From Lingula anatina (Eukaryota > Animalia > Brachiopoda), in assembly GCA_051362555.1 (NCBI GenBank), contig CM120644.1:17382534-17446533 (forward strand): 64,000 nt of DNA, given 5' to 3'. Below, piece by piece: positions 18,865 to 64,000 of this stretch (position 1 is its first letter; each line of letters begins with the position of its first letter). The translations under genes were made by a program, and so were the position numbers. A model generated the notes under the pieces. That model ran no database searches and had not been told where the DNA came from. It worked only from the letters and a program-made list of their open reading frames with translations.

Positions 18865-18919
<55 letters not shown>

Positions 18920-26413: not shown

Positions 26414-26455
26414 TCTGAGACTAGTTATTAAAGGGCACTTTTCTGATGTAATTAT

Positions 26456-38536: not shown

Positions 38537-40669
38537 CTGTACTTTTCTCAGTTTTCGGTCTTACATGATATCGGCACCTCCGGTAAAGGTATCGTTAACA
38601 TATAAGACCGAAAACTGAGGTAACATCAGTACATGTGCCACAACAGATAAAGAAAACTAGGAAAAAGAGGTGAAACTTACAACCGTTTATTCACATTACA
38701 ATAAAAAAGTACTTGCAACAATATCCGAAAAGTATTTATTTATTTTATGATATAAATTTATACTCATTTTAATATTTGTTAATAAGAAAAGAAAAACTAA
38801 AACAAATTTTTGGAATGCTTTCAAAAAAAATTGCCAACTTGAATGAATTTGGTAATATATTAACAAAGCCTACAAGAATGGCGATTTCACTTACGTGAAC
38901 ATCAAAATTAGACACTGTTTCTAGTTTTTTAGTTGACACAGGTCGTAAATATCTTGAATATGTCCTTAATCCTTTCGTAGTCTTATCTCACTGTCACCCA
39001 CCAGTCTAATGCTACGTATATAATATTCCACCAGTAATCATTATCCATAACTCCTGTGTCAATTTCAAGGGTAGAAGATTTGTTCCCATGCACTTGAAAT
39101 GAGCAGCATTATTTTCCACAGAAGCCACGTGGTCTTTTGTCCTCTCTTTTCGCCAACAATTATCATCGTGGTCCTTTGCAATATTCCAAGCCGACTGACA
39201 CAAATAAACAACGAAAATGTCCACAACATTCACATCTTCCACGCCAGTAAAAAATGACATTTATCTTTAGAAGTAGCAATTTCTTCACCGCCTGCATCGG
39301 GGTCTCGCTGCCTATACTATGAAGTCGCCGACTGGTCAATTCTCTGGCATCCTTGACAACTTGTCGCCCTTTCTTGTCAATATGTAGGTCACTCGACAAA
39401 AATGTGAACACATCTTGCGTAATATATGCATACGTCTCACCCCTCTCCCTCATTCATTTTTTTTGCCTTATGATATAGTACCCTCGAATACTGTATGAAA
39501 TCTACAATGGTTTTAAAAATGTACTAATACAATAGCAAATATTACTCAGAATGATAATGTAGAGACTCGAATGATTGATTATTTCATATAACCATTAACA
39601 TCAAATATTACTCGAATTTGATAATAAAGATACTTAAATGATTAACTATTTCAAATCACCCATATGTTAATCTGTACCATTTTTTTAAATCTAATGAAAA
39701 CTGAAAGGAAAAGTACCAATATACATGTATAGCCTACTTTCACAATTGTCATCAACCCCATTTACAAACCCAGAGGAAATTAGTGGTATAAACTTGAACA
39801 AGGCAGCAAAGCTGTCAAACGTACAGACAAAATCAGAAAATAAAAATGCAGAAAATGGTTCATTTTGTCAATTTTGATGCAATAATAAATCATGCCTTCA
39901 ATAGCACAGTCAATCAACACTGAATTTTAATCATGCCAATTTCTCTACATATAGATAAATAGTACTTCTACGAGACGTCTCCTAGTAATTAAAAATAGAT
40001 TTATATTGTCTCTGTTATACGGGTTAGAAACCCTATTTTAGGCATGCTTGTTTTCTTTACCTTGTGTTTCATTAATTTATTAATATTTTACATTAAACTA
40101 GAAAAGAACTCCGAGAACGCAGACCTACGCCAAGGCAGCAGAGTCGCCACCTAATGCCTTTCACCCCTAAATTTTCATTCAATAATGATTTATTTTTTTA
40201 TTTTGAATAATTGATTATTGATTGATTAATGATCCGGATCACCACCAAAAACTAATCATCAGTTCCTTGGCCAACTTCTAGGGCTTACAGGCAGAGTCTT
40301 ACCTTACCAGTTTAAAAAAAAAACGAACTGCGGCCCTGATAATGGGTAACTTAGACTTGCATTGAAAGCTGTGTAAATATCGATATCAAGCTAGAGTGGT
40401 ACATAAGTACGAGCGCTAAAATAGACAAGCGCGACGATTTTAACATTAACTCAGCCGGATTAACTCGTATCAATATAATCATTGTCCAGTGTTTGCCTAT
40501 AATGACAAAAAAAAAAGATAATAAAAAAATAAAAATAAATAAATAAATAAAAAAAAAAAAAATAATAAAATAATAAATAAAAAACGCTATCTCTCACACT
40601 TTATTTTGTCGTTGGCAGTCCTTCATCACAAAAAATACGAACTGTTTCACACCAAACTTTTTCTTACAG

Positions 40670-40990
40670 GACCCACAAGATTGAATGGGAGACTACTAGC
40701 AACCATGGATGTCGGCACACAGACAGATGACTGTAAGTGTTAAATTATTGTCCCTTTTCAATTTTAAAAGCATGTGCACATTTTTCCTATCTCTCCCCCT
40801 TTCATTTTTTCATTTTCATTTTCTGTTTCTGTTTCACTGACTGTGTGTGCTTGTCTGTCTGTCTGTCTGTCTGTCAGTCCGTCTGATTGTGGTATTGGCT
40901 CACTCTTAAAATACACTTTATCAATTGTAATGCAATTGAAGTATGTCAGCACTGTTCTCCATTATTTACTGAGTCACGTCAGTTTCAGAG
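40670..40990 (+). CDS. TQT-microprotein family, copy 1 (partial: exon B plus split stop)
   Basis: Exon 40670-40732 (GPTRLNGRLLATMDVGTQTDD, ttacag|...T|gtaagt) plus AG at 40989-40990 gives TAG. The upstream exon A position is replaced by unrelated sequence. Confidence 0.4.
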
Positions 40991-41721
40991 AATTCTGGAC
41001 ATGGGGGTCAGACTGAACAAGCAGTCCACTCAAGTAATTGTACCAGAGGCCGGACACCCTGTGGCCCGTGTGGCCCCACTAACCAGTGTGACCAAGTATG
41101 ACCATAGTCTGGACACGGATGGCAACACCAGGAAGATAAATAGAGCACCTGCTTTCTGTTATTTCCTATAGCGAACTAGGCTATTATATACTCACAGCTT
41201 CTTAACACTGCATATTGCAATTATAAAACAAAGTTAATGTAGACAAATTTATTATTCTTAATTATTATCTAACAATCTCTAAGCTATTCTGAATTATAGC
41301 TGCTATTAAAAAGTGATTCATGCATCACTGTTTTTGACGTATACCAAACTGTTGATAAAATGTCGGTCATACTGTTGATATAAGCAACAATGTTTTGGAA
41401 CTGCGTGATTCTTTCGTCAAATTTCTCTAGGAAAATTTGCAAGGGCTGCACTTTTAGATTAAAAGAATTTCTTCCGTAGTACGGGACGTCGCCCTAGGAC
41501 CTAGTATTTAAAATTAGCTTACTATTGTCTCTGTTATATGGGTTAGAAAGTCGAAAGAATACCAGCATAGAAAATGTAACTTAGTTGCTTTTTCTAAATA
41601 AAGTTTGATATTCTAGTACTGCTAATTCCAAATTTGTCCAAAAGCTGTCGGTAACCCAAGTGCCATTTTAGGAATGCTTGTTTTCTTTACCTTGTGTTTC
41701 ATTAATAATATTTTACATTAA

Positions 41722-42036
41722 ACTAGAAAAGAACTCCGAGAGCGCAGACCTACGCCAAGGCAGCAGAGTCGCCACCTAATGCCTTTCACCCCTAAATTTT
41801 CATTCAATAATGATTTATTTTTTTATTTTGAATAATTGGTTATTGGTTGATTAATGATCCGGACCACCACCAAAAACTAATCATCAGTTCCTTGGCCAAC
41901 TTCTAACAGTTCCGGAAAATTTCATCAAAATCGGTCCTTCACTTTTTCTGTAATGTTGCTAACAGACAGACAGATAGACAGACAGATAAACAGACAATCT
42001 AACGGAACCAAAAACATAACCTCCTTGGCGGAGGTA
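41722..42036 (-). mobile_element. DINE-1-like / Helentron-associated non-autonomous element
   Basis: Subterminal inverted repeats (acctacgccaagg / ccttggcggaggt), a (GACA)n microsatellite, a terminal hairpin ACCTCC-ttggc-GGAGGT, and ..CTAGT at the other end. A truncated copy lies at 40097-40279. Confidence 0.65.
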
Positions 42037-43381
42037 ATTAATTTTTTTTTCTTTGGGGGGGTAGCTTATTTGTCATGTTTAGTAGCTACTGGCATTTGTA
42101 AGAAAATACCACTTTTCTTTTGGCATTTTTCCATTTTAATCTTTTAAGTTCTTGCTCAGCACCGAACCCTAGACCTCTATAACAGAACGCTATGTACTTT
42201 CTTCATTGAAAATGACGTATTCGTAAATCCTAATATGGTACTGAAATGGTCATACATGTACAGGGGCGGATCCAGCATTTTTTGAAGGGGGGGGGGGGGG
42301 GGGTCTGCGGATGCAAAGCAAACCAGCATCATTCAGGGCGGACGCTTAGGATGGATTTAATTTTTTACGAGAAGTTTCATTAGTAAAAATTTATTCGACT
42401 TTTAATATGATTTACTGTTTGGAACAGAATGCTACTACCCAAAGCAAACATAACACTTCGCACTTCGTCCCTGTAAATTAACGAGCAGACAAACGTCGGC
42501 ATAGGAGGCAATCTTGGCATGGGTGACGGGCTGTATGTGTCGAACACGAAACATGTCACCGAATAGGACGCTTCTGGTATCTTCGTAAACGGTACATAGA
42601 GTCACTGGAATTAAAGGAAAAAATTCACATTCATGAAATAATATCTAAAGATCTGACAAAGCAGTACATGTTCATTATGTACAGTAATTCGTATCAAAAT
42701 TTGTTGCGTTATAGTTAACAAATCGCAATTAAGCTTTGAAATTATATAAATATATACAGTGTACATATTCAAATTGACACCGAAATAGATATATATCTCG
42801 CTTTAATGATAGCATTTGTCTAGGAACGAGTGCACAGAAGATTGTTGATGTTTGACACCAAATCGAACAGTAACCACTTTTTTGTTTGTAAGATTCCTTG
42901 ATATTTTGCCAATCGATATTTTTTAAATTTTATAATTTTCCTTGCAATAAATCCGAAAATGAATACCATACATGGCGTTACGGTGGATAGATTTGCAAAG
43001 CATGGGAATCAGGAGCGCCATAAGACGTGGGGGGTTTACAAGATTATTCAAGTCTTAGCCACATTCAGAATAATATACATATAAAAAATAAAAAGGTTAC
43101 GCAAAAATGAGTGTACTTGAAGTGACTTTTCATAATCACTTAAATTAACTCTGGATTTCGGTTTTTTAGTGCTGACACTAACAGAGGCGGAGCTAGGATT
43201 ATTGGAAGGGGGCTGGGGGTCCGTGGTTGCCAAGCCGACCCCCTCCCCCAACACTTGGCGTGGGGTTCTGGGACCTATAGGCGAACGGTGCCATTTGGTA
43301 CGGTTTAGAACTTTCATTGTTTTTATCTGCTTCTACCTGTGTTTTTTTACTAACTGGTACATGTACGTAGGTGTGCGTGTG

Positions 43382-43646
43382 CAGGGCCGTAGCCTCCTGG
43401 GGGGCAGGGGGGGGGGCAGCTGCCCCCCCCCCTGGGATATGAGGTGCAAAAAAATAATCGCAATTTCTGACTTCCAATTGAGCAATAAATAACAGTTAAA
43501 ATGCAACAGAATGCAGTATTATACATAGTTTTAAAAAAATTCCACACCGTGGGAGGGGGACCTCCCACACCCTCCCCCCTCGGGGGCTCTGCCCCCTCGT
43601 GTCCGCTTACTGCACCCCCTGGCATTTTGCTCAGGCTACAGCCCTG
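43382..43646. mobile_element. MITE with CAGGGCCGTAGCC / GGCTACAGCCCTG TIRs and 5-bp TSD (gtgtg)
   Basis: TIRs and TSD are visible. The paralogous site at ~50430-50450 is empty. Confidence 0.8.
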
Positions 43647-45052
43647 GTGTGTGTGTGTGCACGGGTGCGCGTGTGTGTTTGATAATGTGCACGGATGTGC
43701 TTGAAAGGGAGGGGGGCAAAAGGTTTAAAATTCAGTGGGTCGTTTCACAAGTAACATATACGTATGTGGACGGATGTGTCGGTAAGGTAAATAACTCAAA
43801 CAACGAGCTTCTAAAGTATCGACCGAGTGTTGGAACGTATAGAAAAAGCATGTCCATGCAAACGAAGCGCACTATCAGTTGTAGTAACGTATTTTAAAGC
43901 TCATATGTCAATGTCTGTAGTGGACATGGGTTTAGTTTTAGCTCCGCCTGCTATTGCCTACTTTGTATATATTCACGCCCTGCTCATTGAGTGGGTAGTT
44001 TTTGATCAGTCTCTGTAGATAATAAACGTGTAGTTTTTCAACTCTCGTTTTCTCTCTGAACCGCATATCGACACCGAGCGCAAACGTCTGCTTTCCATAA
44101 CTAGCCCCATACTGGCCCCATACAATACTTTGTAGCCTGTATGAGATATCGCTATTCGCAAATTACGCTATGCTTTCAAGGTTAAGCGTTAAGCGTCGTC
44201 GAGAATCGATAGGGGATTCCCCTTTAAGAAGATGTGTAAAACGTATGAAAGGGCCTACTGGTAGGGGAAAAACCACCAAAATATTTCCCATTGACGACCA
44301 TACTAAGAAATGCCTCCAAAAATGCATGAATAAAAGTATTCTGTGAAACATTTCCCACCCCCATGGACAGCAGACACACTGACATCACTCCCAATGGCAA
44401 AAAAATGTACTGTCATCAGCCTTTCTTGCTTACCGGCATCACTTGAACACGTGCACCCCTCTGTTTGTAAACAAACCACTGCACCACTCACAGTCAGTAG
44501 CCCCTTCCGCCAGAGGTCTCACGACTGCACCGCACATGTGCCTGGTCCTGAAAAAAAAAACTGGCAGTAGTTTACACCCTAGTCTGCTAGTTGATACCAA
44601 AATTAACCCTAGCAACACACAAGAAATGCCAGGAAAAAAATGGAAAAAAGCACTCATTTTTTCTCACTGAACTACATTCGTAATAACAGGCGCTGATAGG
44701 TTGATTTAGTGGGTTTCTGCCCTGGTAGAGTCTAACCTAACCAGTTGTTCGGGTGGATAGGTCCCTTGGTGTGTGTGTGTGTGTGTGTGAGAGTGGAATA
44801 GGTGTAGAAAAGAATGAGATCCAATGGACAAAGGTACATTGTATAGAAGAACGTCCATTGAAACGTGACTGCCGTATGTAGTGTAACTGGAATTGGCAAA
44901 GAATGCTTGGAAAAGCCCCGAACACCGGCACCCATCCGTTTTTAAACTCGCCTCAACGCAAGAAGTATATGAACTGTGACCCTGAAGGATTAACTTCATT
45001 AGACAAACAATGTACATTTTTACGACAGAAACGGTATCACTGAGTAAATAAC

Positions 45053-45135
45053 ATGGCAGATGGACAAGCAGCAAGCGCCGTTGGAAATGGTATGTATAAT
45101 TAATCATTTATAACAATATTAGAAATTAGTAAGAA

Positions 45136-45186
<51 letters not shown>

Positions 45187-45754
45187 TTTATTATAAATAT
45201 ATTACTTTTTCAGAGAATGCTAGAAGCTCAGGAATCATCGCATACAGAGATGTTGGTACAGATATGACCAGCACTGGAGGTAGAAATGGTCACATATTTT
45301 TTAAACCGTATACATTTATTCATTGTCCAGTGTTTGCCTATCATGATAAAACAACACTAGCTCTCACATTATCTTTTGTCTTCGGCAGTCATTCATCACA
45401 AAAAATAAGAACTTTTTCACACCGTTGTATTATACTTACAGGACCCACAAGACTTAATGGAAGACTACTAGCAACCATGGATGTCGGCACACAGACAGAT
45501 CAGTGTAAGTGTTAAATTATTGTCCCTTTTCCATTTTAAAAGAATGTGCACACTGTCCCTATCTCTCCCCCTTTCATTTTTTTATTTTCAGTTTAAGTTT
45601 CACTGACTGTCTGTCTGCTTGTCTGTCTGTCTGTCTGTCAGTCCGTCTGATTGTGGTGTTGGCTCACTGTTAAAATACACTTTATCAATTGTAATGCAAT
45701 TGAAGTATGACAGCACTGTTGTCCATTACTCATTGAGTCACGTCAGTTTCAGAG
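45053..45754 (+). CDS. TQT-microprotein family, copy 2: complete 55-aa protein MADGQAASAVGNENARSSGIIAYRDVGTDMTSTGGPTRLNGRLLATMDVGTQTDQ
   Basis: Exons 45053-45089 (aacATGG; G|gtatgt), 45214-45279, 45442-45504 and 45753-45754 (stop T|AG). All introns are GT-AG and phase 1, and the 168-nt CDS is in frame. AATAAA at 46315-46320. Several synonymous differences versus the other copies. Confidence 0.65.
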
Positions 45755-47607
45755 AATTCTGGACATGGGGGTCAGACTGAACAAGCAGTCCACTCAAGTA
45801 ATTGTACCAGAGGCCGGACACCCTGTGGCCCGTGTGGCCCCACTAACCAGTGTGATCAAGTGTGATCACTGTCTGGACACGGATAACAACACCAGGAACA
45901 TAAATAGAACACTTGCTGTCTGTAATTTGCCATAGCGAACAACGCAATTATATAGTAACAGCTTCTAAACACTGCATATTGTAATTACAACACAAAGTTA
46001 ATTTAATTTATTATTATAAATTATCATCTAACAATCTTAGGTTTTCAGAATTATAGCTGCTATTGGAAAATGATACGTGAATGATTGTTTTTGGCGTATA
46101 CCAAATTGTTGATAAAATTTCGGTCATACTGTTGATATAAGCAACTTCATGTTTTGGCAGTGCGTGATTCTTTCGTCTAATTTCTTTAAGAAAATTTGCA
46201 AGGGCCATATATTTAGATAAATAGTATTTCTAGACGTCTCTTAGTAATTGAAAAATTGCTTAATATTGACTTTGTTATATGGGCTAGAAAATTGAAGGAA
46301 TACCAGCATAGAAAAATAAAGTTTGATATTCTAGTACTGCTCATGCCAAATTTGTCCAAAAGCTGTCAGTAACCCAAGTGCCATTTTTAGGCATTTTTGT
46401 TTTCTTTTACTTATGTTTCATTAATTTATTAGTATTTTACATTAAAGTAGAAAAACACTCCGAGAGCGAAGACTTCCACCGTATTCGTAAACACTAATGG
46501 TACTGAAATGGTTATACATGTTGTACAGGGACGGATCCAGCATTTTTTGAAAGGGGGGGGGGGGGTCTGCGGATGCTAAGCAAACCAGCATCATGCAGGG
46601 CGGACGCTTGGTATGGATTTAATTTCTACGAGAAGTTCCATAAATTAAAAAAGCTTATTTTATTCGACTTTTAATATGATATACTGTTTGGAGCAGAATG
46701 CTACTACCCAAAGCAAACATAACACTTCGTACTAAACGTCGTCCCTGCAAATTAACAAGCAGACAAACGTCGGATAGGAGGCAATCTTGGCGTGGGTGTG
46801 GGGCTGTATGTGTCGAACACCAAACGTGTCACTGAGTAAGACGCTTCTGGAATCTTCGTAAACGGTACATAGAGTCACTGGAAATAAAGGAATAAATTCA
46901 CATCCATAACATAATGTCTAAAGACGTTAGGTTATAATTAACAAATCGCAATTAAGCTTTGAAATTATACAAATATATACAGTGTACATATTAAAATTGA
47001 CACCGCAATAGATATCGCGCTTAAATGATAGCATTTGTCTAGGAACGAGTGCACAGAAGGTTGTTGATGTTTGACACCAAATCGAATAGTAAACACTTTT
47101 TTGGTTGTAAGATGCCTGGCTAATTAGCCTAATCGATATTTTTTAAATTTATAATAAACCTTGCAAGAAATCCCAAAATGAAAACCATACAAGGCGACAT
47201 AAGACGTGAAGGGTTTACAAGATTATCCAAGTCTTTGGAAAAATCAGAATAAGACACATATAAAAAGGGAAAGGGTTAATCAGAAAAGAGTGTACTTGAA
47301 ATGACTTTCCCTAACCACTTAAAGGAATGCTGGAATGCTGGACCCTTATTGAACTCGGTATTATGTGAGAGATATAACTATTCTCAATGTACGCTGTGTT
47401 TTCAAGTTGATGCGTTAATAGATGGCAATAATGTTTGAGGTGTAGCAAAACATATCCTAAACCAAGTAGTAATGATCAATAGGTCGATTTTGTTTGCGTA
47501 GGAAATAAACTTTTTGTAATACGTTTTGTTCTGAATGGAAGCCCCGACCCAAAAACCCAAAAACCCAACGAACCGTACGTAGCCCTGATCAGGATAAAGG
47601 ATAAACT

Positions 47608-47653
<46 letters not shown>

Positions 47654-47685
47654 ATTATACATATAATACATAATTTCTTTTCCAG

Positions 47686-47879
47686 AGAATCCTAGACGCT
47701 CGGGAATTATCGCATACAGAGATGTTGGTACAGATGTACTGATACAGTGTTTGCCTATCATGATAAAAACAACACTTGCTCTCACATTTACTTCTGTCGT
47801 CGGCAGTCATTCATCACAAAAAATACAAAAATTTTCACACCCTTATATCCTACTTACAGGACCCACAAGACTGAATGGA
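47686..47879 (+). pseudogene. TQT-microprotein family, copy 3 (deleted remnant)
   Basis: Exon A starts at 47686 but loses its 3' end and donor. Exon B starts at 47860 and is truncated after ~20 nt by a deletion into 3'-UTR-like sequence. Confidence 0.6.
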
Positions 47880-50800
47880 TTAATATAGCTTTAATATTGT
47901 TATATGGGTTAGAAAACTGGAAGAATACCAGCATAGAAAATGTAACTTAATTGCTTTTTAATAAATAAGGTTTGATATTCTAGTACTGTTCATGCCAAAT
48001 TTGTCCAAAAGCTGTCAGTAACCCGAGTGCCATTTTAAGACATTTTTGTTTGCTTTAATTTATTTTTCATTCATTCATTAATATTTTACATTACATTTTA
48101 CTTTTGGGGGTGGGTTGGGGTGGTAGCTTATTTGTCATGTTTAGTAGCTACTGGCTTTTGTAAGAAAATACCACCTTTCTTTGGGCATTTTTCCATTTTA
48201 ATCTTTTAAGTCATCTTGCTCAGCACCGAACCCTAGACCTCCATAATAGAACGCTATATGCTGTTTACATTGAAAATGACCTATCCGTAAACACTAATAT
48301 GGTACTGAAATGGGCATACGTGCACAGGGGCGGATCCAGCAGTTTTGAAGGGGGGGGGGGGGAGGGGGGGGGGGCGTGGATGCGAAGTCTCTACTTTCAA
48401 TTTTCAATTTATTAAACCTTTGAGCCCTACGGCTCATCAGAAAACTTTCAGAAGACTTATTCCCTACTGAAAATTGGACTTTGGGACAGCTCAAGTGATT
48501 TTGAAAACATGGAATGCAAAAGGCTATGACTTATGTAATTCCTACATAAATATTTTAATAGACGAATGATAGCTAAATGAAGTTCATTTCACGTTTTTTG
48601 TTTTTCGACACTTCTGTTTTGTAATATAAGTCCTAAACGACTTACACGATAAATGTTATTCAAAGTTTCTTATATGCATTTTACGTAATGCGGTTGCAAT
48701 GTCTTTCCTTAAAAGAAGTCAACATTTAAAATGAATAAGAGTATATCTTCAAGTGCGCAGCTGCAGAATTGGTCACACATAAATTTCATTGACAAATAAA
48801 ATAATAATAATAAAAAAACATTTATTTCCTCGGAAATTAATATATGATATATTTAAAAGAATCCCTTTATCATTTTTATGCAGACATTATTTCTGTTAAA
48901 TTAGAAATTCAACTCTAACGTTTCAGGTTCGGAAAGGGGCGGTTATCGACCCCGACCCTAGAGTATACATAGATTATCCTTATAACACTATGAACAGATA
49001 GAACAGAGTACAACGACATAGTAATATACAATTACCAAATGAAGCAAACCAGCAACATGCAGGGCGGACGCTTAGTTTGGACTTAATTTCTATGAGAAAT
49101 TTCATGAATAAAAGGCTAATTTCATTCGACTTTTAATTTGATATACGTTTAGGAGTAGAATGTTACAACCAAAGACAAACATAATATTCCGTAGTAAATG
49201 TCGTCCCTGCAAATTAACGAGCAGACAAGCGTCGGCATAGGAGGCAATCTTGGCATGGGTGCAGGGCTGTATGTGTCGAACACGAAACGTGTCTCCGAGT
49301 AGGACGCTTCTGGTATCTTCGTAAATGGTACACAGAATCACTGGAATTAAAGGGAAAAATTCACACCCATGAAATAATGTCTAAAGATCTGATAAAGCAG
49401 TACATGTTCATTATGTACAGCAATTCGTATCAATATCCGTTGGGTTATAATTAACAAATCGCAATTAAGCTTTAAAATTATACAAATATATACAGTGTAC
49501 ATATTCAAATTGAACCCTCCTTGAAAGCCAATGGCATCAGAAATTAACAGAACGGTGCCCAAAAAAGCACTGAGGGACAGCTAGGAGAAAGTATCCTTCA
49601 CTTGAGTTAGATGTCCCCATGGTCATTATGTCTAGAGTGTACCACACACAACAAAAATAAATAAATGAAAATACAAACGCATTTTCAAAATCGTATACTT
49701 GATATTGCATGGCTGGGCACATATATAGGCCTAAGCTTTAATAGGTCGAATGAACGGACTGGGTGGGGGGATTGTGATAGACCATGATAGAAAAGTTTTC
49801 CATTCAATCTTAGGTACAGCGTAACCGTAAGGTTATTGATGTTTCTTACTTTCTTTCTACTTCTTGGAACATAGATGGACACTTTTAAAGGAAAACGTTT
49901 AGGTTTCACACGTTTATTGAATTGTCTTGAATGTTACATCCATAGGTAATTTTCCATAAGTAAACTCGACGGAATCAATATTTAAACTGTCTTTGCACGA
50001 ATTTTAAAGAATTGGTCTTTATTCGGGAGGGGGGGGGGGCGACAGAACCCCCGCTTTTGCCTGGAAAAGGCCCCCTCTGGGTTAAATTTTATCTGGGGCA
50101 TGAAGTTTCATGGTAAAAGGTCCACTTTTTCAGAACAAGAACGCCCTCCCCCCTCCCCTTTGAAATTGCAGGCTATGGGCCTGCTAAACCGTCAAAAAAC
50201 AAAAGGAATAGGCATACTAGTTAAATATTGGAATTTTGTATGTTTAGTCATTGAGGAAGGACATTTGTGAAGATTGGTTACTCATTTTTAAATTCGGCAT
50301 GCCTGTTTTTAAATGAAAGTGGCCTTTGCTTAAGACCTCATTCCCACAGATTTGAGATCGATTTATCCCTGTGGGGAGTCTCACTAGATAGCTGTCAGCT
50401 TAGCCGGCTAAAACTGTAAGGGGTGTACGTAGGTGTGCGTGTGTGTGTGCACGGTGCGCGTGTGTGTTCTAGAATGCGCACGGATATGCTTGAGAGGGAG
50501 AGGGGCAAAAGGCTAAAATTCACTCATGTCACAAGTAACATATAGGGGCCTACATATGTGGCGAATGTTTCGGTGAGATTAATAGCTCAAATAAAATTGC
50601 TCATAGGTAGCAAAAAAACTTGCAAAAGTTGTAAATTTTTTAAAAATTCAATTTACTTTTAATTTTTATTCATTTTTGAATCTAGTAATATTTAGATTTA
50701 ATTACAAATTAAACGGGAAAATGCAAGTTGTAGCCTACTGGCAGCATATTTATTTTATCTAAATCTACCTTTGTTTTACACTGCATTATAATTGCATAAA

Positions 50801-51667
50801 TGTTTGCCATATTTTTCAGTCTATTTTAAAAGTAGATATCTGATAATAATGTATCTTTTCATATAGATAAATAAAACAATGTTAACATATGCTTAAATAT
50901 GCTAAAAAAAAAAAAAAAACTTCACGTCACACCCGGACTCGGACTATCATAACTTCTTGGTTACACCGAAGCTGTTTTGGCTGCCGTACAACTTGTCTTG
51001 ACCCTTTTATAACCGTGCATGTTAGGGGCACACAAGCCATATAACATGTCCCAGCCTACCCGAGTAACCATATAGGCCTACTGCCTGCCTGGGCCGAATC
51101 TCCCCAAACAACCAATAGACTTGCAGATTCTATGCAAGTAATAACTAAGCTTCCAAAGTAGGCCTATCAACCGAGTCGCTCGGTGAATTTTATCTAGGGA
51201 CATGCAGTTTCATGGTAGAAAGTCCACTTTTACAGAGCCACTCGGTGAATCACGCTATGCTTTCAAGGTTAAGCGTTAAGCGTCGTCGAGAATCGATAGG
51301 GGATTCCCCTTTAAGATGGGTAAAATCGCATACCGGTAGAGTCTAACCTAACCAGTTGTTCGGGGTGTGTGGGTGTGTGGATAGGTCGGTTAGTGGGTGT
51401 GTGTGAGAGAGTGGAATAGGTGTAGAAAAGAATGAGATCCAATCGACAAAGGTACATTGTACAGAAGAACGTCCATTGAAACGTGACTGCCGTATGTAGT
51501 GTAACTGGAACTGGCAAAGAACGCTTGGAAAAGCCCCGAACCCCACATCCGTTGTAAACTCGCCTCAACGTAACAAGAATATGAGCCGTGGCCCTGAAAA
51601 TATAAACTTGATTAGACAAACAACGTATATTAATCTGAAAAGTACTACGGTACTAGCGGGGCATAAC

Positions 51668-51752
51668 ATGGCAGATGGACAAGCAGCAAGCGCCGTTGTA
51701 AATGGTATGTATTATTTTTTATAACAATATTAGAAATGAGTAAAAAACAAGT

Positions 51753-51795
<43 letters not shown>

Positions 51796-52390
51796 AAATT
51801 TTAAAAATTAATCTTTTCCAGAGAATCCTACACGCTCGGGAATCATCGCATACAGGGATGTGGGTACAGATATGACCAGGACTGGAGGTAGATATGGGGC
51901 AGTGGTCACATATTTTTATTTTAAACCGTATACATTTATTCATTGTCCAGTGTTTGCCTATCATGATAAAACATCACTAGCTCTCACATTATTTTTTGTC
52001 GTCGGTAGTCCTTCATCACAAAAAAAGAAAAAGAAAAAACTTTTTTACACCGTTGTATTATACTTACAGGACCCGCAAGACTTTAATAGAAAACTGATAG
52101 CTACCATGGATGTCGGCACACAGACAGATGACTGTAATTAGTGTTTAATTATTGTCCCTTTTCAATTTTAAAAGAATGTGCACACTTTCCCTTTTTCCCC
52201 ACCTTTCGTTTTTTCATTTTCAGTCTCATTTTCACTGACTGTTTGTCTGCTTGTCTATCTGTCTGTCTGTCTGTCAGTCCGTCTGATTGTGGTGTTGGCT
52301 CACTGTTAAAATACACTTTATCAATTGTAATGCAATTGAAGTATGACAGCACTGTTGTCCATTACTCATTGAGTCACGTCAGTTTCAGAG
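51668..52390 (+). pseudogene. TQT-microprotein family, copy 4 (frameshifted; would give 39 aa MADGQAASAVVNENPTRSGIIAYRDVGTDMTRTGGPARL)
   Basis: Exons 51668-51704 and 51822-51887 are intact. Exon B (from 52070) has a 1-nt T insertion giving TAA at 52084-52086, while the DVGTQTDD codons remain downstream. Confidence 0.55.
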
Positions 52391-55300
52391 AATTCTGGAC
52401 ATGGGGGTCAGACTGAACAAGCAGTCCACTCAAGTAATTGTACCAGAGGCCGAACACCCTGTGGCCCGTGTGGCCCCACTTACCAGTGTGATCAAGTGTG
52501 ACCATAGTCTGGACACGGATGACAACACCAGGAAGATAAATAGAACACTTGCTGTCTGTAATTTGCCATAGCGAACAACGCAATTATATAGTAACAGCTT
52601 CTAAACACTGCATATTGTAATTACAACACAAAGTTAATTTAATTTATTATTATAAATTATCATCTAACAATCTTAGGTATTCTGAATTATAGCTGCTATT
52701 GGAAAATGATACGTGAATCATTGTTTTTGGCGTATACCAAATTGTTGATAAAATTTCGGTCATACTGTTGATATAAGCAACTTTATGTTTTGGCAGTGCG
52801 TGATTCTTTCGTCTAATTTCTTTAAGAAAATTTGCAAGGGCCACATATTTAGATAAATAGTATTTCTAGACGTCTCCTAGTAATTGAAAAATTGCTTAAT
52901 ATTGTCTTTGTTATATGGGCTAGAAAATTGAAGGAATACCAGCATAGAAAATGTAACTTAATTGCTTTTTATAAATAAAGTTTGATATTCTAGAATTGCT
53001 CATGCCAAATTTGTCCAAAAGCTGTCAGTAACCCAAGTGCCATTTTTAGGCATTTTTGTTTTCTTTAACTTATGTTTCATTAATTTATTAATATTTTACA
53101 TAAAACTAGAAATGGTACTGAAATGGTCATACATGTACAGAGGCGGCCGGATCCAGCATTTTTTGAAGGGGGGGGGGGTCTGCGGATGCGAAGCAATCAA
53201 GCATCATGCAGGGCGGACGCTTAGTATGGATTTAATTTCTACGAGAAGTTTCATAAATTAAAAAACCTTATTTTATTCGACTTTTAATATGATATACTGT
53301 TTGGAGCAGAATGCTACTACCCAAAGCAAACATAACACTTCGTACTAAACGTCGTCCCTGCAAATTAACAAGCAGACAAACGTCGGATAGGAGGCAATCT
53401 TGGCGTGGGTGTGGGGCTGTATGTGTCGAACACGAAACGTGTCTCCGAGTAAGACGCTTCTGGAATCTTCGTAAACGGTACATAGAGTCACTGGAAATAA
53501 AGGAATAAATTCACATCCATAACATAATGTCTAAAGACGTTAGGTTATAATTAACAAATCGCAATTAAGCTTTGAAATTATACAAATATATACAGTGTAC
53601 ATATTAAAATTGACACCGCAATAGATATCGCGCTTAAATGATAGCATTTGTCTAGGAACGAGTGCACAGAAGATTGTTGATGTTTGACACCAAATCGAAC
53701 AGTAACCACTTTTTTGTTTGTAAGATTCCTGGCTATTTTGCTAATCGATATTTTTTAATTTTATAATTATCCTTGCAAGAAATCCAAAAATAAACACCAT
53801 ACATGGTAAATTGTGGGAAATTAGTGTTACCAGCTGTGTATTGAAAACATAACTTTTCTTAAGCAGCTTTTATTTATTTGGACTTTTCCTTTTATTCGCC
53901 CACTCGCACCGACTTTGGGTACCCCAGAGGATGTTGTCCATAAAAATAATAAATTTTCCCCAACCACCAAAAAGAATGCTGGCTCCCTATTAAATTTTCT
54001 GTTGTGAGCGAGCTATAGCGATTCTCAAATGACGCTATGTTTGCAGGTGCATGCGTTTATTGAATGCGTCCAAGAATGAACAGGGGATGACCCAAAACCT
54101 AACCAAGTTGTACGGATCAATAGATTATCCGTAACCCCGTTGCACCGATCAAGAGGACGCTTTTCTTTGCGTAAGGAGTATATTGTGGTGTATATGTGGT
54201 ATGCTGAATGGCTTTTGTTCCTTATCCGAAACTCACAAGTAACGAACATAAAGGCCCCGAACCCCAGGTCCTACCCGTTGTAAACGCGTGTAAACAAAAC
54301 ATCCCCAGATATGCACTGCATGACGTCACGCCTAGCCCACTGCGCATGCGTGCATTTTTAATGAGTTGCTAGATTGCCATAGGAAAATGAATGGGTTCGC
54401 GATTCGTGGGTAATTCGTGAGAATTGACAAACTAACGGCCTGATGCCGATAGACAGCAACGCTGTGCTATGCTTCAAGCAACTCCTGACCAAATATCGCT
54501 AGGGTTTTTAAAAAAATTCTGTTGTACACACGTACTAAGAAGTTTGCCGTATATTGCCCAGACTACCCTCAGCAAAACGCAAATATTTTCAGTAATAGTG
54601 ATTTTAGACGGTAGATTCACTCAGAAACAAAGGGAAATTAATTCGTTGCCGATAGCACCAGCTGATAGCAGTAACATACAGAGTCTGATTAAAAAATTTC
54701 ATGGCAATTGAAGATTTTTCACCACTGTACAATGGAGTCCAAAAAGAGCACTTGGCACAAATGTAAAACTGCCCAGTGCAAGGCCAAGAACTCAATCAGT
54801 ATTTTCAATCATATTATCAGATTCTACATAAATTGACCGACCATATCACTACTCAGTATTTAACTAATCTCTTAATCCAAAATTCCTATCATCGTTTAAT
54901 AATTATGCAAAATTCTTCTTTCAGATTGCCATTTATTTAATTTTTTAATGCTGCAGCTGTTCCAAAATAATCTTGTAGTAAACGAAAAATGCAAATAAGA
55001 AGTGGAAGACCAATTTTACCCAAGTATTCAATTATTTGAATATAAAAAGAATAAGATCACGATTTAAAAAATTTAAATAATCTTTCATGAACTCTTTCAT
55101 GAATAACATATTAAACAAAAATGAAAGTTATAAATCAGTGGTAATGGCTTATTCTGGAATATATGACCTCTGTACATCATCAGTACCTGACTTGATACAG
55201 TATAGTTACTACTTGGATACAGAGTTAGATTTAATAATGTAACAATAAGAAAAATATATATTATAATAATAAACTTCTCTGCACATATCAGACGCTTGTT

Positions 55301-55471
55301 ACCATGAACTAACACTACTTGACAATGGGCTGAGCACTTATCACAGATTCTTGTGCTGTGATTGGTTAGTTGAGTCACGTGAAGCCCTACTGTGGCGCCC
55401 TCGCGTATCGCGTAAATGCTGCACATTTCTGGCCATGAAACGAAACGAAACGTAGCCCTAAGCAGGATGAA

Positions 55472-55505
<34 letters not shown>

Positions 55506-55537
55506 ATTATACATATAATACATAATATCTTTTCCAG

Positions 55538-56071
55538 AGAATCCTAGACGCTCGGGAATCATCGCATACAGAGATGTTGGTACAGATATGACCAGGACTG
55601 GAGGTAGAAATGGTCACATATTTTTTAAACCGTATACATTTATTCATTGTCCAGTGTTTGCCTATCATGATAAAACAACACTAGCTCTCACATTAACTTC
55701 TGCCGTTGGCAGTCATTCATCACAAAAAATACAAACTTTTTCACACCGTTGTACTATACTTACAGGACCCACAAGACTGAATGGCAGACTACTAGCAACA
55801 ATCGATGTCGGCACACAGACAGATGACTGTAAGTATTAAATAATTGTCACTTTTCAATTTTAAAAGAATGTGCACACTGTCCCTATCTCTCTCCCCTTTC
55901 ATTTTTTCATTTTCAGTTTCTTTTTCACTGACTGTCTGTCTGCTTGTCTGTCTGTCAGTCCGTCTGATTGTGGTGTTGGCTCACTGTTAAAATACACTTT
56001 ATCAATTGTAATGCAATTGAAGTATGACAGCACTGTTGTCCATTACTCATTGAGTCACGTCAGTTTCAGAG
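55538..56071 (+). CDS. TQT-microprotein family, copy 5 (exons A, B and split stop intact; no adjacent ATG exon)
   Basis: 55538-55603 (NPRRSGIIAYRDVGTDMTRTG), 55766-55828 (GPTRLNGRLLATIDVGTQTDD) and 56070-56071. Confidence 0.45.
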
Positions 56072-59000
56072 AATACTGGACATGGGGGTCAGACTGAACA
56101 AGCAGTCCACTCAAGTGATTGTACCAGAGGCCGGACACCCTGTGGCCCGTGTGGCCCCACTAACCAGTGTGATCAAGTGTGATTACAGTCTGGACAAGGA
56201 TAACAACACCAGGAAGATAAATAGAACACTTGCTGTCTGTAATTTGCCATAGCGAACAACGCAATTATATAGTAACAGCTTCTAAACACTGCATATTGTA
56301 ATTACAACACAAAGTTAATTTAATTTATTATTATAAATTATCATCTAACAATCTTAGGTATTCAGAATTATAGCTGCTATTGGAAATTGATACGTGAATC
56401 ATTGTTTTTGGCGTATACCAAATTGTTGATAAAATTTCGGTCATACTGTTGATATAAGCAACTTTATGTTTTGGCAGTGCGTGATTCTTTCGTCTAATTT
56501 CTTTAAGAAAATTTGCAAGGGCCACATATTTAGATAAATAGTATTTCTAGACGTCTCTTAGTAATTGAAAAATTGCTTAATATTGACTTTGTTATATGGG
56601 GCTAGAAAATTGAAGGAATACCAGCATAGAAAATGTAACTTAATTGCTTTTTATAAATAAAGTTTGATATTCTAGTATTGCTCATGCCAAATTTGTCCAA
56701 AAGCTGTCAGTAACCCAAGTGCCATTTTTAGGCATTTTTGTTTTCTTTAACTTATGTTTCATTAATTTATTAATATTTTACATAAAACTAGAAATGGCAC
56801 TGAAATGGTCATACATGTACAGAGGCGGATCCAGCATTTTTTGAAGGGGGGGGGGGGGTCTGCGGATGCGAAGCAATCAAGCATCATGCAGGGCGGACGC
56901 TTAGTATGGATTTAATTTCTACGAGAAGTTTCATAAATTAAAAAACCTTATTTTATTCGACTTTTAATATGATATACTGTTTGGAGCAGAATGCTACTAC
57001 CCAAAGCAAACATAACACTTCGTACTAAACGTCGTCCCTGCAAATTAACAAGCAGACAAACGTCGGATAGGAGGCAATCTTGGCGTGGGTGTGGGGCTGT
57101 ATGTGTCGAACACGAAACGTGTCTCCGAGTAAGACGCTTCTGGAATCTTCGTAAACGGTACATAGAGTCACTGGAAATAAAGGAATAAATTCACATCCAT
57201 AACATAATGTCTAAAGACGTTAGGTTATAATTAACAAATCGCAATTAAGCTTTGAAATTATACAAATATATACAGTGTACATATTAAAATTGACACCGCA
57301 ATAGATATCGCGCTTAAATGATAGCATTTGTCTAGGAACGAGTGCACAGAAGATTGTTGATGTTTGACACCAAATCGAACAGTAACCACTTTTTTGTTTG
57401 TAAGATTCCTGGCTATTTTGCTAATCGATATTTTTTAATTTTATAATTATCCTTGCAAGAAATCCAAAAATAAACACCATACATGGTAAATTGTGGGAAA
57501 TTAGTGTTACCAGCTGTGTATTGAAAACATAACTTTTCTTAAGCAGCTTTTATTTATTTGGACTTTTCCTTTTATTCGCCCACTCGCACCGACTTTGGGT
57601 ACCCCAGAGGATGTTGTCCATAAAAATAATAAATTTTCCCCAACCACCAAAAAGAATGCTGGCTCCCTATTAAATTTTCTGTTGTGAGCGAGCTATAGCG
57701 ATTCTCAAATGACGCTATGTTTGCAGGTGCATGCGTTTATTGAATGCGTCCAAGAATGAACAGGGGATGACCCAAAACCTAACCAAGTTGTACGGATCAA
57801 TAGATTATCCGTAACCCCGTTGCACCGATCAAGAGGACGCTTTTCTTTGCGTAAGGAGTATATTGTGGTGTATATGTGGTATGCTGAATGGCTTTTGTTC
57901 CTTATCCGAAACTCACAAGTAACGAACATAAAGGCCCCGAACCCCAGGTCCTACCCGTTGTAAACGCGTGTAAACAAAACATCCCCAGATATGCACTGCA
58001 TGACGTCACGCCTAGCCCACTGCGCATGCGTGCATTTTTAATGAGTTGCTAGATTGCCATAGGAAAATGAATGGGTTCGCGATTCGTGGGTAATTCGTGA
58101 GAATTGACAAACTAACGGCCTGATGCCGATAGACAGCAACGCTGTGCTATGCTTCAAGCAACTCCTGACCAAATATCGCTAGGGTTTTTAAAAAAATTCT
58201 GTTGTACACACGTACTAAGAAGTTTGCCGTATATTGCCCAGACTACCCTCAGCAAAACGCAAATATTTTCAGTAATAGTGATTTTAGACGGTAGATTCAC
58301 TCAGAAACAAAGGGATATTAATTCGTTGCCGATAGCACCAGCTGATAGCAGTAACATACAGAGTCTGATTAAAAAATTTCATGGCAATTGAAGATTTTTC
58401 ACCACTGTACAATGGAGTCCAAAAAGAGCACTTGGCACAAATGTAAAACTGCCCAGTGCAAGGCCAAGAACTCAATCAGTATTTTCAATCATATTATCAG
58501 ATTCTACATAAATTGACCGACCATATCACTACTCAGTATTTAACTAATCTCTTAATCCAAAATTCCTATCATCGTTTAATAATTATGCAAAATTCTTCTT
58601 TCAGATTGCCATTTATTTAATTTTTTAATGCTGCAGCTGTTCCAAAATAATCTTGTAGTAAACGAAAAATGCAAATAAGAAGTGGAAGACCAATTTTACC
58701 CAAGTATTCAATTATTTGAATATAAAAAGAATAAGATCACGATTTAAAAAATTTAAATAATCTTTCATGAACTCTTTCATGAATAACATATTAAACAAAA
58801 ATGAAAGTTATAAATCAGTGGTAATGGCTTATTCTGGAATATATGACCTCTGTACATCATCAGTACCTGACTTGATACAGTATAGTTACTATTTGGATAC
58901 AGAGTTAGATTTAATAATGTAACAATAAGAAAAATATATATTATAATAATAAACTTCTCTGCACATATCAGACGCTTGTTACCATGAACTAACACTACTT

Positions 59001-59151
59001 GACAATGGGCTGAGCACTTATCACAGATTCTTGTGCTGTGATTGGTTAGTTGAGTCACGTGAAGCCCTACTGTGGCGCCCTCGCGTATCGCGTAAATGCT
59101 GCACATTTCTGGCCATGAAACGAAACGAAACGTAGCCCTAAGCAGGATGAA

Positions 59152-59185
<34 letters not shown>

Positions 59186-59217
59186 ATTATACATATAATA
59201 CATAATATCTTTTCCAG

Positions 59218-59751
59218 AGAATCCTAGACGCTCGGGAATCATCGCATACAGAGATGTTGGTACAGATATGACCAGGACTGGAGGTAGAAATGGTCACATA
59301 TTTTTTAAACCGTATACATTTATTCATTGTCCAGTGTTTGCCTATCATGATAAAACAACACTAGCTCTCACATTAACTTCTGCCGTTGGCAGTCATTCAT
59401 CACAAAAAATACAAACTTTTTCACACCGTTGTACTATACTTACAGGACCCACAAGACTGAATGGCAGACTACTAGCAACAATCGATGTCGGCACACAGAC
59501 AGATGACTGTAAGTATTAAATAATTGTCACTTTTCAATTTTAAAAGAATGTGCACACTGTCCCTATCTCTCTCCCCTTTCATTTTTTCATTTTCAGTTTC
59601 TTTTTCACTGACTGTCTGTCTGCTTGTCTGTCTGTCAGTCCGTCTGATTGTGGTGTTGGCTCACTGTTAAAATACACTTTATCAATTGTAATGCAATTGA
59701 AGTATGACAGCACTGTTGTCCATTACTCATTGAGTCACGTCAGTTTCAGAG
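59218..59751 (+). CDS. TQT-microprotein family, copy 6 (exons appear identical to copy 5)
   Basis: 59218-59283, 59446-59508 and 59750-59751, offset 3680 bp from copy 5. Confidence 0.45.
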
Positions 59752-61753
59752 AATACTGGACATGGGGGTCAGACTGAACAAGCAGTCCACTCAAGTGATT
59801 GTACCAGAGGCCGGACACCCTGTGGCCCGTGTGGCCCCACTAACCAGTGTGATCAAGTGTGATTACAGTCTGGACAAGGATAACAACACCAGGAAGATAA
59901 ATAGAACACTTGCTGTCTGTAATTTGCCATAGCGAACAACGCAATTATATAGTAACAGCTTCTAAACACTGCATATTGTAATTACAACACAAAGTTAATT
60001 TAATTTATTATTATAAATTATCATCTAACAATCTTAGGTATTCAGAATTATAGCTGCTATTGGAAATTGATACGTGAATCATTGTTTTTGGCGTATACCA
60101 AATTGTTGATAAAATTTCGGTCATACTGTTGATATAAGCAACTTTATGTTTTGGCAGTGCGTGATTCTTTCGTCTAATTTCTTTAAGAAAATTTGCAAGG
60201 GCCACATATTTAGATAAATAGTATTTCTAGACGTCTCTTAGTAATTGAAAAATTGCTTAATATTGACTTTGTTATATGGGGCTAGAAAATTGAAGGAATA
60301 CCAGCATAGAAAATGTAACTTAATTGCTTTTTATAAATAAAGTTTGATATTCTAGTATTGCTCATGCCAAATTTGTCCAAAAGCTGTCAGTAACCCAAGT
60401 GCCATTTTTAGGCATTTTTGTTTTCTTTAACTTATGTTTCATTAATTTATTAATATTTTACATAAAACTAGAAATGGCACTGAAATGGTCATACATGTAC
60501 AGAGGCGGATCCAGCATTTTTTGAAGGGGGGGGGGGGGGGGTCTGCGGATGCGAAGCAATCAAGCATCATGCAGGGCGGACGCTTAGTATGGATTTAATT
60601 TCTACGAGAAGTTTCGTAAATTAAAAAACCTTATTTTATTCGACTTTTAATATGATATACTGTTTGGAGCAGAATGCTACTACCCAAAGCAAACATAACA
60701 CTTCGTACTAAACGTCGTCCCTGCAAATTAACAAGCAGACAAACGTCGGATAGGAGGCAATCTTGGCGTGGGTGTGGGGCTGTATGTGTCGAACACGAAA
60801 CGTGTCTCCGAGTAAGACGCTTCTGGAATCTTCGTAAACGGTACATAGAGTCACTGGAAATAAAGGAATAAATTCACATCCATAACATAATGTCTAAAGA
60901 CGTTAGGTTATAATTAACAAATCGCAATTAAGCTTTGAAATTATACAAATATATACAGTGTACATATTAAAATTGACACCGCAATAGATATCGCGCTTAA
61001 ATGATAGCATTGTCTAGGAACGAGTGCACAGAAGATTGTTGATGTTTGACACCAAATCGAACAGTAACCACTTTTTTGTTTGTAAGATTCCTGGCTATTT
61101 TGCTAATCGATATTTTTTAATTTTATAATTATCCTTGCAAGAAATCCAAAAATAAACACCATACATGGTAAATTGTGGGAAATTAGTGTTACCAGCTGTG
61201 TATTGAAAACATAACTTTTCTTAAGCAGCTTTTATTTATTTGGACTTTTCCTTTTATTCGCCCACTCGCACCGACTTTGGGTACCCCAGAGGATGTTGTC
61301 CATAAAAATAATAAATTTTCCCCAACCACCAAAAAGAATGCTGGCTCCCTATTAAATTTTCTGTTGTGAGCGAGCTATAGCGATTCTCAAATGACGCTAT
61401 GTTTGCAGGTGCATGCGTTTATTGAATGCGTCCAAGAATGAACAGGGGATGACCCAAAACCTAACCAAGTTGTACGGATCAATAGATTATCCGTAACCCC
61501 GTTGCACCGATCAAGAGGACGCTTTTCTTTGCGTAAGGAGTATATTGTGGTGTATATGTGGTATGCTGAATGGCTTTTGTTCCTTATCCGAAACTCACAA
61601 GTAACGAACATAAAGGCCCCGAACCCCAGGTCCTACCCGTTGTAAACGCGTGTAAACAAAAAAACGAAACGAAACGTAGCCCTAAGCAGGATGAAGTTGA
61701 GAGAGAGAGAGAGAGAGAGAGAGATTAATTATACATTAATATATCTTTTCCAG

Positions 61754-62287
61754 AGAATCCTAGACGCTCGGGAATCATCGCATACAGAGATGTTGGTACA
61801 GATATGACCAGCACTGGAGGTAGAAATGGTCACATATTTTTTTAAACCGTATACATTTATTCATTGTCCAGTGTTTGCCTATCATGATAAAACAACACTA
61901 GCTCTCACATTATCTTTTGTCGTTGGCAGTCATTCATCACAAAAAATACAAACTTTTTCACACCGTTGTATTATACTTACAGGGCCCACAAGACTGAATG
62001 GAAGACTACTAGCAACCATGGATGTCGGCACACAGACAGATGAATGTAAGTATTAAATAATTGTCACTTTTCAATTTTAAAAGAATGTGCACACTGTCCC
62101 TATCCCCCCCCCTTTCATTTTTTCATTTTCAGTTTCTTTTTCACTGACTGTCTGTCTGCTTGTCTGTCTGTCAGTCCGTCTGATTGTGGTGTTGGCTCAC
62201 TGTTAAAATACACTTTATCAATTGTAATGCAATTGAAGTATGACAGCACTGTTGTCCATTACTCATTGAGTCACGTCAGTTTCAGAG
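61754..62287 (+). CDS. TQT-microprotein family, copy 7 (ends ..ATMDVGTQTDE)
   Basis: 61754-61819, 61983-62045 and 62286-62287. Splice sites are intact and there is no adjacent ATG exon. Confidence 0.45.
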
Positions 62288-64000
62288 AATACTGGACATG
62301 GGGGTCAGACTGAACAAGCAGTCCACTCAAGTGATTGTACCAGAGGCCGGACACCCTGTGGCCCGTGTGGCCCCACTAACCAGTGTGATCAAGTGTGATT
62401 ACAGTCTGGACAAGGATAACAACACCAGGAAGATAAATAGAACACTTGCTGTCTGTAATTTGCCATAGCGAACAACGCAATTATATAGTAACAGCTTCTA
62501 AACACTGCATATTGTAATTACAACACAAAGTTAATTTAATTTATTATTATAAATTATCATCTAACAATCTTAGGTATTCAGAATTATAGCTGCTATTGGA
62601 AATTGATACGTGAATCATTGTTTTTGGCGTATACCAAATTGTTGATAAAATTTCGGTCATACTGTTGATATAAGCAACTTTATGTTTTGGCAGTGCGTGA
62701 TTCTTTCGTCTAATTTCTTTAAGAAAATTTGCAAGGGCCACATATTTAGATAAATAGTATTTCTAGACGTCTCTTAGTAATTGAAAAATTGCTTAATATT
62801 GACTTTGTTATATGGGGCTAGAAAATTGAAGGAATACCAGCATAGAAAATGTAACTTAATTGCTTTTTATAAATAAAGTTTGATATTCTAGTATTGCTCA
62901 TGCCAAATTTGTCCAAAAGCTGTCAGTAACCCAAGTGCCATTTTTAGGCATTTTTGTTTTCTTTAACTTATGTTTCATTAATTTATTAATATTTTACATA
63001 AAACTAGAAATGGTACTGAAATGGTCATACATGTACAGAGGCGGATCCAGCATTTTTTGAAGGGGGGGGGGGGGGGGGGGGTCTGCGGATGCGAAACAAT
63101 CAAGCATCATGCAGGGCGGACGCTTAGTATGGATTTAATTTCTACGAGAAGTTTCATAAATTAAAAAACCTTATTTTATTCGACTTTTAATATGATATAC
63201 TGTTTGGAGCAGAATGCTACTACCCAAAGCAAACATAACACTTCGTACTAAACGTCGTCCCTGCAAATTAACAAGCAGACAAACGTCGGATAGGAGGCAA
63301 TCTTGGAGTGGGTGTGGGGCTGTATGTGTCGAACACGAAACGTGTCTCCGAGTAAGACGCTTCTGGAATCTTCGTAAACGGTACATAGAGTCACTGGAAA
63401 TAAAGGAATAAATTCACATCCATAACATAATGTCTAAAGACGTTAGGTTATAATTAACAAATCGCAATTAAGCTTTGAAATTATACAAATATATACAGTG
63501 TACATATTAAAATTGACACCGCAATAGATATCGCGCTTAAATGATAGCATTGTCTAGGAACGAGTGCACAGAAGATTGTTGATGTTTGACACCAAATCGA
63601 ACAGTAACCACTTTTTTGTTTGTAAGATTCCTGGCTATTTTGCTAATCGATATTTTTTAATTTTATAATTATCCTTGCAAGAAATCCAAAAATAAACACC
63701 ATACATGGTAAATTGTGGGAAATTAGTGTTACCAGCTGTGTATTGAAAACATAACTTTTCTTAAGCAGCTTTTATTTATTTGGACTTTTCCTTTTATTCG
63801 CCCACTCGCACCGACTTTGGGTACCCCAGAGGATGTTGTCCATAAAAATAATAAATTTTCCCCAACCACCAAAAAGAATGCTGGCTCCCTATTAAATTTT
63901 CTGTTGTGAGCGAGCTATAGCGATTCTCAAATGACGCTATGTTTGCAGGTGCATGCGTTTATTGAATGCGTCCAAGAATGAACAGGGGATGACCCAAAAC

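Follow-up and report, generated by a model that had tools for sequence, protein, structure and literature searches.

Does this part of a brachiopod genome hide a family of very small proteins made to bind the dynein light chain LC8? The question arose from a window of 64,000 nucleotides (nt) of Lingula anatina DNA (assembly GCA_051362555.1, contig CM120644.1, positions 17,382,534 to 17,446,533), which we analyzed at its full length. A preliminary description of the window had proposed a tandem family of spliced genes, each encoding a microprotein of 55 amino acids (aa) that ends in the LC8-type motif DVGTQTD. We put slightly better than even chances on a modified answer: the array belongs to an unannotated family of spliced Lingula genes assembled from phase-1 microexons. 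The expressed member of this family carries the DVGTQTD exon in head-to-tail repeats and likely codes for a short and probably disordered protein, to which several LC8 dimers are predicted to bind; the window itself has one possibly intact single-site copy together with six duplicates that are damaged or lack a promoter.

The array in the window consists of six units with exon 3 and exon 4, named copies 1 to 6, plus one deleted fragment (Table 1). In copy 2, exons 1 to 3 are 37, 66, and 63 nt long and have AG/GT ends in the DNA, and joining them to an acceptor at 45753 yields the 55 aa reported earlier; the tiny phase-1 exons are real. DVGTQTD, described as invariant, is indeed unchanged at the DNA level in all six exon-3 copies, and the synonymous exon differences listed at that time are present in the copies. 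The string GIIAYRDVGTD, also called invariant, fared less well: AYRDVGTD is kept in all six exon-2 copies, but GIIAY is altered in the expressed copy, where RNA reads turn II into SV.

We compared copy 2, at 88% likeness, with 4 of 9 raw-read RNA runs that carry the same species label (X1, X4, X7, and X9). The X1 sample comprised 12.4 million records, about 6% of the run, and joints were listed from three reads upward. Sense reads of X1 span exons 2, 3, and 4 as far as the poly(A) signal. Exon 2 is joined to exon 3 by 8 reads with 7 starts, exactly at the junction proposed earlier (45279/45442). A joint that leads from the end of exon 3 to an exon 3 beginning occurs in two sequence forms, with 5 and 7 reads, and 10 reads with 8 starts connect exon 3 to 45747. 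All of these joints lie on the sense strand and at AG/GT ends predicted from the DNA, and the exon 2-3 and exon 3-3 joints preserve the reading frame. Of the other runs, X4 and X9 have no depth over exons 1 to 3, and X7 has four reads, in exon 2 only.

The joints that go back to exon 3 are informative about the gene itself. In the RNA, the last base of exon 3 is G where a further exon 3 follows and T where exon 4 follows, and the following exon 3 begins in two forms; the differing terminal base and the two start forms show that the exon 3 repeats are separate genomic exons. A circular RNA was considered as the source of these joints and rejected, since the terminal base depends on the type of joint and the library was a poly(A) library. 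The expressed messenger RNA (mRNA) carries at least two DVGTQTD exons, and probably three if the four joints of similar read count share one mRNA. With 12 in-frame exon 3-3 reads placing two TQT exons on one mRNA, a multivalent chain is predicted from the RNA.

The site of the last joint changes the predicted product. The junction had been placed at 45504/45753, and no joint to 45753 is among those listed in X1. The acceptor used by the reads, 45747, precedes 45753 by six bases and so keeps the frame, and its split codon TTT replaces TAG; the stop of the 55-aa product is therefore lost and copy 2 would give 94 aa. In the expressed exon 4, a missing G leads to a frame reading KQSTQV, a further predicted TQV-type anchor. 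Judged by composition, the 94-aa copy-2 product (53% disorder-promoting and 23% order-promoting residues, two aromatics) is probably disordered. If intron 3 is retained, copy 2 would stop after 58 aa, just past the motif, which may give a short isoform; approximately 10 reads enter this intron. Homology of exon 4 to exons 2 or 3 at the protein level was tried and rejected (P = 0.36 to 0.99). Of the earlier proposal, then, the hidden spliced gene with a good LC8 motif stands, whereas the one-site product of 55 aa is replaced by a longer product with a repeated motif exon, as predicted from the RNA.

A functional family of 55-aa proteins with one strong site, amplified for dosage as LC8 decoys, would fit the intact state of copy 2, the presence of both exon-4 acceptors (45747- and 45753-type) in all six copies, and the resemblance of the 45753 acceptor to that of exon 2 (DNA P = 0.007); the 58-aa form, compatible with the reads that retain intron 3, would likewise stop right after one motif. 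Yet the 10 reads at 45747, the repetition of exon 3 in RNA, and the finding that no read set equals a window copy all speak for a different product, and the 55-aa protein is possible from only one of the six units. We regard this explanation as distinctly improbable.

The condition of the units bears on the same point. Copy 2 is the only one of six with all four exons in frame. Exon 1 was found in copies 2 and 3 only, and no candidate running from an ATG to a donor turned up in the four regions scanned upstream of copies 1, 4, 5, and 6. Copies 4 to 6 start at a GA microsatellite of intron 1. Copy 3 has four exons, and a 1-nt insertion in its exon 3 ends the product at 39 aa. The possibility that exons 1 and 2 of copy 1 are hidden further upstream in the window was rejected; this copy starts inside intron 2. 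Each unit is closed by AATAAA, about 570 to 610 nt into exon 4. Since only one unit in six is able to make an intact product, dosage-driven amplification of functional copies is disfavored, and with it the tandem microprotein family as first conceived. The array is best seen as local duplication debris of the expressed gene, with copy 2 as a possible one-site paralogue. Either a recent duplication event or a segment entered twice in the assembly may lie behind the 99.8% identity of copies 4 and 5 over 2.5 kb. Intron 2 is 162 nt long and free of stops in copies 2, 4, and 5 (45280-45441 and 55604-55765), so that its retention would leave exons 2 and 3 in frame.

Table 1. Coordinates of the array units and of the antisense exon in the window
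Feature	Position	Strand	Remarks
Copy 1 exon 3	40670..40732	+	63 nt, DVGTQTD; unit 5'-truncated, with its start at about 40460 within intron 2
Copy 1 terminal exon 4	40983..41602	+	Up to AATAAA at 41597; 3' end inferred
Copy 2 exon 1, coding part	45053..45089	+	ATG, upstream in-frame stop, GT donor
Copy 2 exon 2	45214..45279	+	66 nt, phase 1-1, degenerate RDVGTDM; donor backed by reads of a related copy
Copy 2 exon 3	45442..45504	+	63 nt, phase 1-1, MDVGTQTD; both ends backed by reads
Copy 2 terminal exon 4	45747..46320	+	From read-supported acceptor to AATAAA at 46315
Deleted fragment	47686..47878	+	Exon 2 without donor, partial intron 2, first 19 nt of exon 3
Copy 3 exon 1	51668..51704	+	
Copy 3 exon 2	51822..51887	+	
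Copy 3 exon 3	52070..52133	+	64 nt, frameshift ahead of motif
Copy 3 exon 4	52383..52979	+	Up to AATAAA at 52974
Copy 4 unit	55476..59155	+	3.68 kb; exon 2 55538-55603, exon 3 55766-55828, exon 4 from 56064
Copy 5 unit	59156..61661	+	Exon 2 59218-59283, exon 3 59446-59508, exon 4 from 59744
Copy 6 unit	61699..64000	+	Exon 2 61754-61819, exon 3 61983-62045, exon 4 from 62280; continues past window
Antisense exon	46723..46877	-	Likely exon of a second transcript
Antisense exon copies	42454-42627, 49190-49363, 53336, 57016, 60699, 63239		About 90% alike, in every array unit

How good is the motif? The TQT anchor of exon 3 (Q at position 0, T, V, or I at −1 and +1) is present in six of six copies at the DNA level and in frame in five. 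The canonical LC8 motif is [D/S]Kx[T/V/I]Q[T/V][D/E] and a phage-evolved one is VSRGTQTE, according to PMC3078936. MDVGTQTD, with D at −4, G at −2, T at −1, Q at 0, T at +1, and D at +2, fits six of the seven positions of the published pattern; its G at −2 is that of the evolved consensus, and the exception is −3, where V replaces K/R. Binding is favored by a hydrogen-bonding residue at −4 and by strand-breaking D, E, or P at +2 (PMC6607443), and the motif has D at both positions and no proline within it. The exon 2 site, VGTDM, is without the Q at 0 and should be weak for LC8. A random frame of 55 to 95 codons with the composition of the window holds the LC8 pattern in 0.03 to 0.06% of cases, a figure to be read with the fact that the locus was itself picked by a scan for the motif, and 35,564 residues of 43 MIOS proteins contain no match. 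By motif alone, the exon product would be an LC8 client if translated.

We then looked for relatives. The frame formed by exon 2, intron 2, and exon 3 had no match among 1.84 billion representatives, and neither the one candidate considered for it among proteins of 53 to 170 aa nor any of five candidates for the exon-4 frame among proteins of 166 to 2000 aa scored. There were no matches in PDB sequences, in Pfam for the exon-bearing frames, in Rfam for 33000-64000, or for the exact DNA pattern in metagenome contigs, and the Atlas gave only unnamed clusters, all below 0.9. For a product spliced from exons 1, 2, and 3, the search of 1.84 billion representatives should have returned E = 5e-13. 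Given this expected value and the presence of Lingula MIOS in the collection, the gene appears unannotated and lineage-restricted within these collections. Orthology to ASCIZ/ATMIN found no footing, with no zinc-finger family in the 117 upstream open reading frames (ORFs) and no match in the protein searches. No paper on a Lingula dynein light chain was found among those listed, and none on DVGTQT, in a literature search that did not extend to genome-paper supplements, which possibly list the transcript; brachiopods are not mentioned in the 30 LC8 papers listed out of 114.

Another possibility is that a longer protein, such as a scaffold or a transcription factor with a TQT tail, has exons 2 to 4 as its 3' end, that its 5' exons are located elsewhere, and that the window copies are duplicates of the tail. 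Known multivalent LC8 ligands such as ASCIZ and KANK1 do sit in long proteins, and the proposed junction 45089/45214 found no backing: no exon 1-2 joint was seen, and exon 1 has no reads. Exon 1 nevertheless has an ATG preceded by an in-frame stop, as well as a GT donor, and its versions in copies 2 and 3 show 1 difference in 37 positions against 58 in 368 in the flanks (P = 0.03; P = 0.50 against introns 2 and 3). The length-free search retrieved no protein despite the E = 5e-13 expected for a spliced exon 2+3, and none of the 117 ORFs between the upstream neighbor, likely UMAD1, and copy 2 has a credible Pfam match; the single sub-threshold match lies on a poly-C run. We consider a longer protein quite unlikely.

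Is the array under coding constraint? Divergence (p) was 0.056 for exon 2, 0.102 for exon 3, and 0.058 and 0.063 for the introns, so the exons are not better conserved. Changes were counted in exon 2 of copies 2, 3, 4, and 6 and in exon 3 of copies 1, 2, 4, and 6, with split codons omitted. Exons 2 and 3 together have 8 synonymous and 8 replacement changes (8/16 versus 25% of sites; ratio 0.34, P = 0.03), which is a borderline signal of selection; compared with introns, synonymous changes give P = 0.054, which is not significant. Exons 2 and 3 both hold DVGT, in different codons (protein P = 0.03, DNA P = 0.03), suggesting an older exon duplication that retained the motif. Taken together, the evidence for coding constraint is weak to moderate, and much of the constraint was probably inherited from the source gene.

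Several observations weigh against an expressed, coding, LC8-binding gene of this kind. Joints were seen in one of four runs only, at around 10 reads each per 12.4 million records; exon 1 depth is zero in all four runs; and the roughly 10 reads that extend into intron 3 indicate that the RNA is partly unspliced there. The count of changes omits exon 3 of copy 3, which is frameshifted, and copy 5, which is identical to copy 4; replacement changes are no rarer than intron changes (8/92 versus 50/394, P = 0.37); and the invariance of the motif is about 12% likely under neutrality. No protein relative in the searched collections means no long-range conservation. For LC8 itself, a large positive residue is preferred at −3, the position taken here by V, and many TQT peptides fail to bind (PMC6607443). 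In addition, at four fixed sites (45764, 45819, 45862, and 45875) the reads match none of the six copies, 34 of 35 reads have four G and not five in the exon-4 run at 45767-45771, and no window exon 3 ends in G. Reads and window copies differ by about 5% in exon 4, above the 1.6% heterozygosity given for the Lingula genome in PMC4595640, and cryptic lineages are reported under the name L. anatina (PMC8146825). As L. anatina is a species complex, the reads possibly come from another lineage and are no direct evidence on the window copies. To judge by these differences, the expressed gene is either a paralogue outside the window or an orthologue in another lineage.

Many of the same facts would suit a non-coding RNA that is spliced, or a family of pseudogenes in decay that was carried within a mosaic segmental duplication, with the motif left over from an older gene or present by chance: five of the six units that bear exon 3 are broken or without exon 1, expression is low and confined to a single run, intron 3 is partly retained, replacements are not under the intron rate, the exon-4 frame in the reads differs from that of the window copies, and every unit carries a piece of a second, antisense transcript. 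However, all observed joints keep one frame, the exons are symmetric, synonymous changes are in excess, and among the differences listed, those at the exon-2 core, the exon-2 end, and exon 3 are synonymous or off-motif. We judge this explanation unlikely, and retain the reading of a spliced gene with repeated LC8-motif exons.

The antisense transcript deserves a description of its own. On the minus strand at 46723-46877, antisense depth is about 600-fold, in run X1 only. The edge of this exon is sharp at 46877, behind a pyrimidine tract and a CAG acceptor, and joints that lead back by 145 and 155 nt were found. It probably belongs to another transcript, strongly expressed and likewise with exon repeats. 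One frame is uninterrupted in the copies at 42.5 and 49.2 kb and also when the read differences are applied; neither Pfam nor PDB gave a match for it.

In its left part, the window contains MIOS, with exons at 6052-19986. A 76-aa test piece of MIOS is 100% identical to the recorded Lingula anatina protein, which marks the window as brachiopod DNA from the L. anatina lineage. Next come a weak minus-strand match to RPA3 (E = 0.01) and then an MVB12/UMA-type match (E = 5e-4), which we take to be UMAD1. The order in 6052-26413, MIOS (+), likely RPA3 (−), likely UMAD1 (+), is presumably that of vertebrates. We take GLCCI1, an LC8 binder, to be the next vertebrate neighbor; it was not detected among the 117 ORFs of 26400-45060. 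A Tc1/mariner-type transposase remnant lies inside a MIOS intron at 11518-12516 on the minus strand (DDE_3, E = 1e-8; HTH_Tnp_Tc3_2, E = 3e-8). A 108-aa frame at 1189-1515 on the minus strand, with an N/T/D-rich stretch, one hydrophobic segment, and no Pfam match, resembles a small single-pass membrane protein. From about 33 kb onward the window is a patchwork of duplicated segments with 78-99.8% identity. Remnants of array units upstream of copy 1, at 33198-34330 and 39946-40280, indicate that the duplicated zone begins near 33.2 kb, and it extends beyond the window end. The repeats at 44400-44700 and 46521-46620 are dispersed, transcribed in all four runs (88-95% likeness), and not locus-specific.

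How might such a gene work? If the mRNA is translated and one molecule carries exon 2, two to three exons 3, and exon 4 in this order, which short reads support joint by joint, each exon 3 would supply one predicted LC8 site, 21 residues from the next, and weaker putative sites would come from VGTDM of exon 2 and KQSTQV of the expressed exon 4. LC8 dimers could then zip two chains into a ladder, by analogy with ASCIZ or KANK1. Because no other domain is evident, we propose that the protein may serve, within a limited tissue or stage, as an LC8 sponge or a short rigid spacer. Since exons 2 and 3 are symmetric, with phase 1-1 and lengths divisible by three, the number of sites can change without a frameshift, and exon duplication could serve as a valency dial. 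In its most specific form the proposal is tentative, possible but well short of probable: an orphan brachiopod protein made almost only of LC8 sites, one per symmetric exon, with a site number that varies among paralogues or lineages (a single site in copy 2 but two to three in the expressed form) through ongoing exon duplication, and which acts as a tissue-restricted LC8 sponge or tunable rod. If the RNA is untranslated, the locus is an ordinary decaying segmental duplication. No predicted protein contains these exons, though the neighboring MIOS is recorded; annotation misses such a class of genes.

Among known systems, the LC8-binding domain of ASCIZ/ATMIN, as presented in PMC5963919 and PMC10046861, resembles the predicted Lingula product: a disordered chain with several unequal TQT-type sites, for which ladder-like duplexes with LC8 dimers would be expected. 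ASCIZ differs in having a DNA-binding part and in controlling LC8 transcription; in the Lingula gene no folded domain was found and no sequence relationship was detected. Unlike ASCIZ, the Lingula gene has one predicted site per exon and a fixed period of 21 residues. Linker L2 of KANK1 (bioRxiv 10.1101/2025.07.16.665182) likewise places strong and degenerate motifs in series, and its weak non-TQT anchors require a multivalent context for binding, which offers a precedent for VGTDM of exon 2. KANK1 is, however, a long conserved scaffold with approximately 15 closely packed sites (same source). The Lingula gene is short and lineage-restricted, with about three to five predicted sites and longer linkers.

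In myosin Va, the three-residue alternative exon B completes one LC8 site within a large motor. The Lingula gene resembles it in controlling a predicted LC8 site through a small exon, and differs in that whole predicted sites are duplicated as exons. To our knowledge, multivalent LC8 ligands are known only within large conserved proteins. If our reading is true, a small stand-alone ligand with a valency fixed by the number of copies of a 63-nt exon would illustrate the origin of motif arrays, and would offer a natural series of one, two, and three identical sites at fixed spacing for testing LC8 affinity and cooperativity.

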